DNA of 64,000 nt from NCBI RefSeq assembly GCF_030013205.1, contig NZ_CP122648.1. One strand, 5' to 3'. The DNA is from Escherichia coli. Its GTDB lineage: Bacteria > Pseudomonadota > Gammaproteobacteria > Enterobacterales > Enterobacteriaceae. The position numbers and the translations under genes are program-made. The notes beneath the pieces were generated by a model that did not search any database, was not told the DNA's origin, and saw only the letters and a program-made list of their open reading frames with translations. Positions 51,195 to 51,909 of this stretch are shown piece after piece; the first letter of the stretch is position 1, and each line of letters opens with the position of its first letter.

Positions 51195-51229
51195 CCAAAA
51201 AGAAAACCCGCAGTTTTTACGTTGCGGGT
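51195..51229 (-). terminator. putative terminator of the hok-like transcript
   Basis: minus-strand hairpin ACCCGCAACG-taaaaa-CTGCGGGTT followed by TTCTTTTT. Confidence 0.5.
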
Positions 51230-51316
51230 TTGTTGTTCATGTCTGTGAGATAGGGTGCCTTATCGACCTTACCCTGGCAACCGATTGACGGGGGATTGCT
51301 CCCCCGTCGCGGTTTC

Positions 51317-51457
51317 CTTACTGCTTACACTGTAAGAACGCCGCAAACTCCGCTCCCCAGAATCTCATCCGTATTTCGCACAGCGAACCGTGCAACATCC
51401 AGATGATGAGGATTGCCGTCACGCAGAACGTGATGGCCGTAAGCGATTTTTGCGACA
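51317..51457 (-). CDS. Hok/Gef-family type I toxin (46 aa)
   Basis: manual translation MSQKSLTAITFCVTAILIIWMLHGSLCEIRMRFWGAEFAAFLQCKQ: one TM helix plus the SLCEI..E.AAFL.CK signature of Hok/Gef; a longer overlapping frame (ORF 51325..51612) is mok-like. Confidence 0.7.
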
Positions 51458-51648
51458 TAGCACTTGCTCCTTTTCCGGAGAGGCGCTAACCTTTCACTTG
51501 TCAAGGTAATGCGGTTAGGGCCTCGGTTAAACAGAAACGTTTTCCGGGGCCTTTCCACATCTGGCCTTCGGGTATTCCCTCCGACCATCAGCCGAAAGGC
51601 ACCCGCGCGCAATCTATCTCTTTTTTGTTACTCCGGCAATTCTGCCTG

Positions 51649-51909
51649 TTAATTTTGAGGTAAGGGCAAACTCATCTGATTGTTTCCTTTGTGTGAAGCT
51701 GGCAGTTCATGCCACGGGATACCTTCTGAAGAGTGAGCGCCGGAGGCGTGTTTCGATGTGAATTTATGGAAAGCTTCCAGTGTTGAGAAGCATACACCGC
51801 ATTCTAGGTTGTTACATTGGTAATACTTTTGCCGCACGGTGTTTGAATCATTTTCCGGACGACTGGTGCGGATTCGGGCAGATGCGCCACAAAGCGGACA
51901 ACGGAACAT
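51649..51909 (-). CDS. P2 Ogr/Delta-family zinc-finger late-gene activator
   Basis: N-terminus MFRCPLCG..RTSR..YYQCNNLECG resembles P2 Ogr (Cys2-Cys2 finger); true C-terminus uncertain. Confidence 0.7.
   Translation of the reverse strand: MFRCPLCGASARIRTSRPENDSNTVRQKYYQCNNLECGVCFSTLEAFHKFTSKHASGAHSSEGIPWHELPASHKGNNQMSLPLPQN

Follow-up and report, generated by a model that had tools for sequence, protein, structure and literature searches.

A probable hok/sok-family toxin-antitoxin module at the outer edge of a degraded P2-like prophage in Escherichia coli

Introduction

Among the systems closest to the locus described here, hok/mok/sok (parB) of plasmid R1 has an mRNA that ends, once processed, in a 3′ stem-loop and that switches between tac/ucb and Shine-Dalgarno (SD)/dcb pairings (PMC9841398), and Sok-dependent cleavage by RNase III together with an unstable antitoxin is known for R1 and in part for hokW (PMC9841398, PMC8621323). 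The hokW-sokW locus of the Stx2 prophage Sp5/933W has been shown experimentally to be a type I toxin-antitoxin (TA) system (Takada et al. 2021, PMC8621323). Here we describe a locus on the minus strand of a 64,000-nucleotide stretch of Escherichia coli DNA (assembly GCF_030013205.1, contig NZ_CP122648.1; this whole stretch is called the window). It is likely to be a hok/sok-family type I TA module, carried as the terminal cargo of a degraded P2-like prophage directly downstream of ogr.

A bioRxiv survey of Hok peptides from 2026 places peptides of the type found in the window in 'cluster 72', defined at 60% identity and flagged as a high-abundance cluster (10.1101/2025.08.07.668861). Two members, 72_1621 and 72_1589, are listed in Table S2 of the survey as cloned for arabinose-induced toxicity tests (Escalera-Maurer et al., 10.1101/2025.08.07.668861). 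Toxicity was seen for 42 of the 45 constructs, and neither of the cluster-72 constructs is among the three named exceptions (10.1101/2025.08.07.668861). The assays used only the coding sequence with a synthetic SD, and mok, Sok and the transcript ends were left unanalysed by the authors (10.1101/2025.08.07.668861).

The window peptide is identical to 72_1621 at 45 of 46 positions, both being 46 amino acids long with Ser32 in 72_1621 and Arg32 in the window, while 72_1589, also of 46 amino acids, is the Stx-phage form and is 74% identical. At the level of DNA the whole module is 93-98% identical to that of deposited P2-like phages of the genus Xuanwuvirus (P88, Chuche, PhiR44_2 and others), where it likewise lies beside the end of the phage genome and ogr. 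The P88 protein, gp52, is annotated as 'MokW-like host killing / hok/gef family protein'. P88 differs from the window in the region of the Sok 5′ tail and in the reading frame that overlaps hok in the +2 register, which is closed in the phage.

With R1 the locus shares the Pfam family of the toxin, the tac/fbi fold-back, ucb, the GAGG box, dcb, a sequestered hok SD and the 3′ stem-loop, and it also resembles R1 in where the sok promoter lies and in how the Sok hairpin is shaped. In contrast to the plasmid-borne R1 system it is phage-borne; its peptide is six residues shorter and 42% identical over 31 residues only, its leader measures 146 nt against 168 nt in an R1-type locus (L022), and it has neither a mok start codon nor a conserved mok frame. 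The hokW-sokW locus resembles that of the window in being prophage-borne and in the assignment of both toxins to phrog_251, but HokW is 51 amino acids long and about 33% identical, and its locus has a mok start (GAGG, 8 nt, ATG). The two are separate loci. In the Sp5 prophage (VT2-Sakai) hokW ('gef homolog orf74', L024 12501-12713) is accompanied by a cluster-72 copy that lies downstream of lom (L002 1662-1802), so the approximately 80%-identical copy of Stx phages, which we had considered as a candidate for hokW, was rejected as such. HokST of Salmonella was likewise rejected as a characterised relative, being of another type and encoded on plasmid pCol1B9.

Results

A Hok-family peptide under purifying selection

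51318..51458 including the stop codon, minus strand: hok coding sequence, 46 amino acids, with Pfam, PHROG and BLASTP matches and a frame that is intact in homologues

The peptide encoded here is MSQKSLTAITFCVTAILIIWMLHGSLCEIRMRFWGAEFAAFLQCKQ. It matches the Pfam family HOK_GEF (PF01848) with an E-value of 9.1e-8 over model positions 5-42 of 42 and PHROG 251 ('MokW-like host killing') with an E-value of 2.7e-23. An earlier note on this DNA, made from its letters alone, had proposed that a type I toxin locus of the hok/gef type lies where a prophage meets the chromosome, and had recommended alignment to the Hok family as a check; BLASTP against Hok of R1 gives 42% identity over 31 residues (E 9e-8), and the proposal is borne out by this homology, by the conserved architecture of the mRNA and by the genomic context. 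The minus-strand frame of 46 residues with a Hok signature that the note placed at 51317-51457 is present, one base further along. All seven of the residues that the survey logo shows to be conserved in more than 80% of 1,264 Hok peptides (M1, C16, T18, L30, C31, E32 and E41; 10.1101/2025.08.07.668861) are found in the window peptide, as M1, C12, T14, L26, C27, E28 and E37. The best-scoring NCBIfam model is that of E. coli K-12 HokA (NF007290, E 4.7e-9). The note also held that the gene is easily missed, which is not the case, since PGAP calls it in every matching RefSeq genome among the matches listed, with the label 'Hok/Gef family protein' (WP_001416438.1).

All 16 homologues, which come from Escherichia, Salmonella, Citrobacter and Klebsiella, retain an uninterrupted hok frame of 46-47 codons. 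The median dN/dS of hok is 0.24, with values below 1 in 76/76 pairs. At the level of sequence these results show the peptide to be a Hok-family membrane toxin under purifying selection.

Predicted architecture of the hok mRNA

The elements assigned to the hok mRNA are as follows, numbered in nucleotides from its 5′ end where this is helpful.

51634..51639, minus strand: putative hok promoter -35 box, TTGCCG, read from the sequence 17 nt upstream of the -10 box and weakly conserved
51611..51616, minus strand: putative hok promoter -10 box, TAGATT, ending 7 nt before the GGGUGCC 5′ end
51197..51604, minus strand: predicted full-length hok mRNA of about 408 nt, the 5′ end placed from the start of the Rfam RF01794 match, the invariant GGGUGCCUU and the promoter spacing, the 3′ end from the terminator
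51590..51604, minus strand: predicted tac element, nt 1-15, GGGUGCCUUUCGGCU, paired with fbi in the minimum free energy (MFE) fold, its 9-nt core invariant in 16/16
51546..51555, minus strand: ucb-like box, nt 50-59, GAAAGGCCCC, whose GGCC.CGG is predicted to pair with CCG.GGCC around GAGG when the full-length RNA folds
51520..51524, minus strand: conserved GAGGC, nt 81-85, positional equivalent of the R1 mok SD and one arm of the Sok hairpin
51477..51484, minus strand: predicted dcb/anti-SD strand, nt 121-128, GCCUCUCC, paired with the hok SD in the full-length fold (consensus helices 6-7)
51467..51470, minus strand: hok SD, GGAG, nt 135-138, 8 nt before the AUG, enclosed in a local hairpin by the MFE fold and the consensus alike
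51338..51353, minus strand: coding-region strand GCGGAGUUUGCGGCGU, codons for AEFAAF, predicted to pair with the hok start region, nt 147-162
51287..51308, minus strand: 3′ untranslated region (UTR) stem-loop, GACGGGGG...CCCCCGUC (helix 13; 9 pairs, 4 of them compensatory, 99.3% paired)
51253..51268, minus strand: predicted fbi element, nt 337-352, GGUCGAUAAGGCACCC, partner of tac, its core changing only from G-C to G-U or from U-A to U-G wobbles
51197..51231, minus strand: intrinsic terminator of the hok mRNA, stem AACCCGCA/UGCGGGUU followed by UUUCUUUUU (helix 14, 3 compensatory pairs), beginning 87 nt past the hok stop

The Rfam model RF01794 ('sok') matches at 51604-51445 on the minus strand (47.3 bits, E 8.5e-9), that is, in the sense orientation of the hok leader. 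On the R1-type plasmid locus the model also lies on the sense strand, from the 5′ end of the hok mRNA to the hok AUG (L022 232-403, plus strand; 87.2 bits), and not on the antisense Sok RNA; RF01794 thus describes the hok leader and its orientation in the window is as expected. The hok -10 box, as TAGATT, TAGAAT, TAAATT or TAGAGT, is kept at the same place in 14/16 homologues. These homologues form alignment A3, 16 distinct sequences that include E. coli prophages at ihfA and serS, a P4-like element, P88, a Stx phage, E. albertii, two Citrobacter sequences, Klebsiella oxytoca and five Salmonella copies.

The 408-nt RNA is predicted to fold with an MFE of -176 kcal/mol (z = -6.8 relative to shuffled sequences). 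The RNAalifold consensus of the 16 homologues has 86 pairs, for which 97.3% of cells can pair, compared with 37-46% when the partners are slid by 1-3 columns. Both sides have changed in a compensatory manner at 16 pairs, a count reached by 1/500 shuffles, and the covariation score is 0.196 against 0.05-0.06 in the slid controls. The helices with the best support are the 3′ UTR stem-loop (4 compensatory pairs), the terminator (3) and a long-range helix of nt 97-103 with the 3′ UTR (4). A hairpin with a U-tract downstream of hok had been noticed earlier at 51195-51229, and the terminator is essentially this, two bases away. The terminator scan returned plus-strand readings of hairpins only, as the minus-strand loop of 10 nt exceeds the limit of the tool; the terminator was confirmed by folding and covariation.

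Folding for fbi and tac, another check that the note had suggested, brings the two together as a fold-back of 15 bp in the MFE fold. Its 7-bp core is 99% paired in the 16 sequences, and the extension beyond it differs by lineage yet always pairs, with a duplex dG of -21 to -29 kcal/mol in 16/16. When the RNA is cut at 51285, tac is predicted on thermodynamic grounds to refold onto ucb; the tac-ucb duplex is kept in the homologues with a dG of -12 to -21, the tac, ucb and SD/dcb boxes being invariant and so without covariation. In the same cut RNA the freed GAGGC (nt 81-85) would pair with GCCUC (nt 121-125) on the strand that otherwise masks the hok SD, the truncated fold joining nt 121-124 to A82-C85. 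This refolding follows the logic of the tac/ucb and SD/dcb switching of R1, and the 3′ stem-loop is positioned like the one at the end of processed R1 hok mRNA (PMC9841398). The hok start region pairs with the AEFAAF codons in helix 8, which has 14 pairs and 99.6% of cells paired; five of its pairs vary, by wobble only, and the coding stretch is near-invariant in nucleotides because helix 8 pairs there. The CCGAGGC around the GAGGC box is invariant in 16/16 sequences. Its equation with the CGAGGC (mok SD) of the R1-type locus was made by eye, MAFFT alignment A4 being a few columns off register there. As predicted from folding and covariation, the architecture of the mRNA is shown to be Hok-like and to be conserved across the 16 homologues.

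A putative Sok antisense RNA inside the leader

51464..51469, plus strand: putative sok promoter -35 box, TTGCTC, with a 17-nt spacer, aligning with TTGCGC of the R1-type locus
51487..51492, plus strand: putative sok promoter -10 box, TAACCT, aligning with TATCCT of the R1-type locus
about 51500..51555, plus strand: predicted Sok-like antisense RNA of about 56 nt, its start set 7-8 nt after the -10 box

The sok promoter of R1 reads TTGCGC-17 nt-TATCCT on the antisense strand, and the window has its counterpart at the aligned position. An antisense promoter, for which the note had proposed a search, can thus be placed by R1 homology at 51464-51492. The -35 box is present as TTGCTC, TTGCCT, TTGACT or TTTACT and the -10 box as TAACCT or TATCCT in 16/16 homologues, with a spacer of 17 nt (18 nt in one). 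It is followed by a conserved hairpin, GGGCCUCGG...CCGGGGCC, at about 51517-51552 and then UUCC (to about 51556), the U-rich tail being conserved as well, with a fold z of -4.2; the equivalent fold is predicted in P88, Stx, Salmonella and R1-type loci. Because the conserved promoter is followed by the conserved hairpin, Sok was placed at about 51500-51555, where it would be complementary to nt 50-105 of the hok mRNA leader. An antisense Sok with a promoter of its own thus appears to lie inside the leader. A Sok-like RNA on the plus strand had been expected near 51560-51640; the strand agrees with our prediction and the position does not, since the sequence there belongs to the hok promoter and to the 5′ hairpin of its mRNA, and the predicted Sok and its promoter lie about 60-100 nt away.

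Of all transcribed segments, the one targeted by the Sok 5′ tail varies most, with a mean column identity of 0.62 and gaps in 36% of columns. This variable, indel-rich part of the leader (51496-51514 on the plus strand, columns 91-112 of alignment A3) complements the single-stranded 5′ tail of Sok. Such variability would fit a diversified specificity of the antitoxin in genomes with up to seven copies.

The overlapping frame and the absence of mok

51325..51612, minus strand: overlapping frame of 95 amino acids with a TTG start, judged to be a chance open frame

A longer frame that overlaps hok had been noted as being positioned like mok. The frame exists; the role of mok was rejected for it, as its start precedes the transcript, it is closed in the closest relatives and there is no start at the position of mok. 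Its TTG start at 51612 lies upstream of the transcription start assigned at 51604. Read in the +2 register, the leader of the window and its close lineage runs into hok without a stop. In P88, Citrobacter, Stx phages and most of the copies from Salmonella, stop codons close this frame both before and after the hok start; the Hok peptides of these relatives share 74-98% identity with the window peptide. Between close relatives the leader shows indels of 1-3 nt, and no PHROG or NCBIfam match was found for the 95-residue product.

To survey the branch we used 87 distinct leader-plus-hok sequences from 136 loci. In 0/87 leaders does an ATG, GTG or TTG occur 4-14 nt after the conserved GAGG, and in 47/87 there is no canonical start anywhere in the leader whose reading frame reaches the hok SD. 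The other 40/87 have lineage-specific candidates only, which in the lineage of the window are a GTG at +47, with AAGG 6 nt upstream, and a TTG at +101. Near-cognate starts (AUU, AUA, AUC, CUG) after GAGG are sporadic, in various frames and mostly stopped within 2-8 codons. The positive controls, an R1-type locus and hokW, both show GAGG, an 8-nt spacer, an ATG and an open frame through the hok start. From these sequences we conclude that mok is no feature of the cluster-72 branch and that the long frame of the window is probably open by chance; the sok architecture is conserved in related strains while that of mok is not. A literature search for hok loci lacking mok returned nothing relevant.

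At both control loci (L022 344-559, R1-type; L024 12501-12713, hokW) the frame that begins at the mok ATG is in frame with hok and shares its stop (71 and 70 codons), such that 'Mok' there is an N-terminally extended Hok. In R1 proper the mok ATG is at 116-118 and the hok ATG at 174-176, out of frame by those coordinates (PMC9841398).

Genomic context and carriers

51649..51909, minus strand: ogr/Delta-like zinc-finger gene, the upstream neighbour of hok on the same strand
51054..51055, no strand: prophage junction and end of core-chromosome homology, nearly all of 5,425 matching E. coli genomes matching only up to 51054

The 551 bases spanning the hok locus are 100% identical in strain K_EC180 and six enterotoxigenic E. 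coli (ETEC) strains. In the window the gene order of the E. coli chromosome, thrS-infC-rpmI-rplT-pheMST-ihfA, is followed by foreign DNA, and the junction at 51054 is directly 3′ of the ihfA terminator. Homology to the mobile hok module begins at about 51186-51195. As core homology stops at 51054 and that of the module starts shortly after it, hok is the outermost gene of the element, and the prophage-chromosome junction that the note had placed here lies about 140 bp from the locus. A terminator scan found none between ogr and hok.

The prophage itself is degraded. Between ogr and a truncated gene D lie an hxsDBCA cassette and an IS66 element, and of the tape-measure and integrase genes only fragments are left. 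The cassette (52162-55559, plus strand) is a complete His-Xaa-Ser system of hxsD, hxsB, hxsC and hxsA, with two radical SAM maturases and a repeat protein, placed in the manner of a phage moron with ogr on one side and the remains of gene D on the other; its coordinates were carried over from the identical K_EC180 annotation and are consistent with the window reading frames at 52434-53822 and 53815-54927. In the stretches 55900-59225 and 59673-62246 the IS66-family element (ISCro1 transposase, tnpB, tnpA) abuts the truncated gene D, which is of the VgrG/Pvc8 family, and the tape-measure gene is a pseudogene on the opposite strand. From the position of the IS66 element and the tape-measure pseudogene it follows that the P2-like prophage carrying hok is defective and rearranged.

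The Rfam model STnc540, an enterobacterial small RNA (sRNA), matches at 50954-51110 on the plus strand, over the 3′ end of ihfA and its terminator, with 41.9 bits. In this match the central part of the model is largely compressed and the end of core homology at 51054 falls inside it; the same model reaches 171.6 bits at L014 3295-3492, from a Salmonella genome whose ihfA site likewise carries a P2-like prophage. The attachment site of the prophage therefore seems to be in or beside the STnc540 locus. In the segment of about 130 bp between the chromosome junction and the hok terminator there is also a G+C-rich hairpin (AAGCCCGCTACATTGTGGGCTT, 51133-51154), which may be part of the prophage att region or a terminator for convergent transcription. 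Elsewhere in the window, a gene for the type III secretion effector EspL1 (espL1, 41418-43316, minus strand) has been inserted between yniD and thrS, as would fit an attaching-effacing or ETEC-type swine strain background, and the Rfam sRNA ES036 (CssrF) matches at 23220-23262 on the minus strand with 38.9 bits against a gathering threshold of 37.6.

The DNA module is present in 1,549/5,426 complete E. coli genomes (about 29%); its copy number has a median of one and reaches seven. In Stx-converting lambdoid phages it is about 80% identical. Among 120 IMG/VR stretches that contain the conserved coding 23-mer, hok is preceded by ogr on the same strand in 89 and by lom in 21. In P88 hok is among the last genes of the record, and in Salmonella the pheT-ihfA site that is occupied in the window also holds a P2-like prophage with gpU-gpD-ogr-hok. 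P2-like phages carry the module as standard cargo downstream of ogr, as Stx phages do downstream of lom. A profile scan of genome contigs based on the alignment gave 7 loci only, several of them in mis-binned metagenome-assembled genomes.

Some genomes of Salmonella enterica have three cluster-72 hok/sok modules in tandem (L016 3001-4487; L017 3001-4143), with diverged Hok peptides and Sok-tail regions. One E. coli copy (L019 2513-5424) is found not in a P2-like prophage but in the context of a P4-like satellite with an integrase, a toprim-domain primase and an ogr/Delta-like gene.

Discussion

By analogy with R1 and hokW (PMC9841398, PMC8621323), from which we infer the functional cycle, the full-length hok RNA would be translationally inert, locked by tac and fbi, with the GAGG box held by ucb and the hok SD and start codon buried in the local hairpin and in the long-range helix with codons 36-41. 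Slow trimming from the 3′ end would remove fbi, upon which tac would refold onto ucb and leave the leader open to Sok and to ribosomes. For as long as Sok is made it would pair with the leader and the duplex would be destroyed by RNase III. Were Sok not replenished, through loss of the element or a shut-off of transcription, Hok would be made and the inner membrane depolarised.

No mok frame joins the Sok target to the hok start, and therefore control would have to be direct. This might be through decay of the mRNA triggered by Sok, or the released GAGGC might pair with GCCUC and Sok might block this pairing. Direct control by RNA is the reading we prefer, as a thermodynamic prediction only. 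In tisB/istR-1, which is controlled through a ribosome standby site, the antisense RNA acts far upstream of a sequestered toxin ribosome-binding site and there is no leader reading frame. The likeness is a functional analogy only, as tisB/istR-1 has no sequence or structural relationship to the window locus. It is possible, if somewhat doubtful, that the cluster-72 hok loci of P2-like and Stx phages form a natural branch of hok/sok without mok, in which GAGGC has been kept as an RNA switch (an anti-anti-SD that pairs with GCCUC and unmasks the hok SD) or as a ribosome standby site, and in which Sok would control hok directly by occupying GAGGC.

A number of points weigh against the assignment of the locus as a working hok/sok module of this kind. 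The NCBIfam cut-offs are not reached, the peptide scoring 36.1 bits against 89 for the HokA equivalog (NF007290) and 24.7 against 73 for the Hok subfamily (NF007279); with 36 bits so far below the 89-bit equivalog cut-off, the peptide is not HokA. A strict sigma-70 consensus scan of 51100-51750 found neither the hok nor the sok promoter, and both were therefore assigned by conservation and R1 homology. The RF01794 score in the window is below the gathering threshold of the family, 59 bits, and relatives in cluster 72 score 35.6-57.2 bits; since all of the cluster-72 loci tested fall under this threshold, annotation based on Rfam misses the branch. The predicted refolding exposes the hok SD only partly and, in a locus without mok, no route to opening so strongly sequestered an SD is evident. 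Being invariant, GAGGC and GCCUC give no covariation signal for their pairing. Finally, we infer the toxicity of the exact window peptide, the ends of the transcript, the existence of Sok and the 3′ processing.

As for the biological role, the candidates are stabilisation of the prophage, help in lysis as for hokW and exclusion of other phages. That the same module has been selected not for prophage addiction but for earlier lysis and release in lytic growth, or for the exclusion of superinfecting phages by abortive infection, strikes us as rather unlikely. In its favour, hokW-sokW doubles the release of phage Sp5 after induction with mitomycin C and R1 hok/sok has been cited for phage defence (PMC8621323), and with hok directly downstream of ogr and no terminator between them read-through into hok on induction would be possible. 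HokW is, however, the more distant protein described above and its locus has mok; the dyad of P2 late promoters (searched as TGT-N11-13-ACA) was not found upstream of hok, and PADLOC gave no defence-system match and has no model for the peptide. A role in lysis could in any case not operate in the window, because the prophage is defective.

It is improbable that the locus is a silent relic, in which mok has been lost and hok has become untranslatable, carried along in a decaying prophage like the inactivated chromosomal hok genes of laboratory strains. The lack of an evident route to opening the hok SD hairpin and the state of the surrounding prophage would agree with this, but the peptide is under purifying selection, compensatory changes keep the RNA helices, the sok promoter is kept in every homologue aligned, and the module is found in phage isolates, in Stx phages and, often in several copies, across E. 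coli genomes. Very improbable is the canonical hok/mok/sok arrangement, with translation of the +2 frame from the GUG at nt 47 or the UUG at nt 101 coupled to hok, for although translation of R1 mok has to extend no further than the hok SD (PMC9841398), neither start is at the R1-homologous position and the frame is disrupted among relatives as set out above.

The probable hok/sok module of the window is for the most part an ordinary one that is already known: RefSeq and phage records annotate the gene, the cluster of its peptide has been catalogued and a near-identical member assayed for toxicity. It is thus of little import for discovery, and the absence of mok across a phage-borne branch is the sole point possibly worth an experiment. 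The RNA half of the locus, the Sok RNA and the elements of the hok mRNA, is annotated nowhere and lies below the Rfam threshold, a gap that the present coordinates fill, and the long overlapping frame should not carry an annotation as mok. That about 29% of complete E. coli genomes carry the module, with as many as seven copies in some, and that the Sok-tail target is its most variable part, bears on cross-talk between antitoxins. If it is true that this family works without mok, it would offer a simple natural system in which to ask what mok is for in the R1 paradigm.

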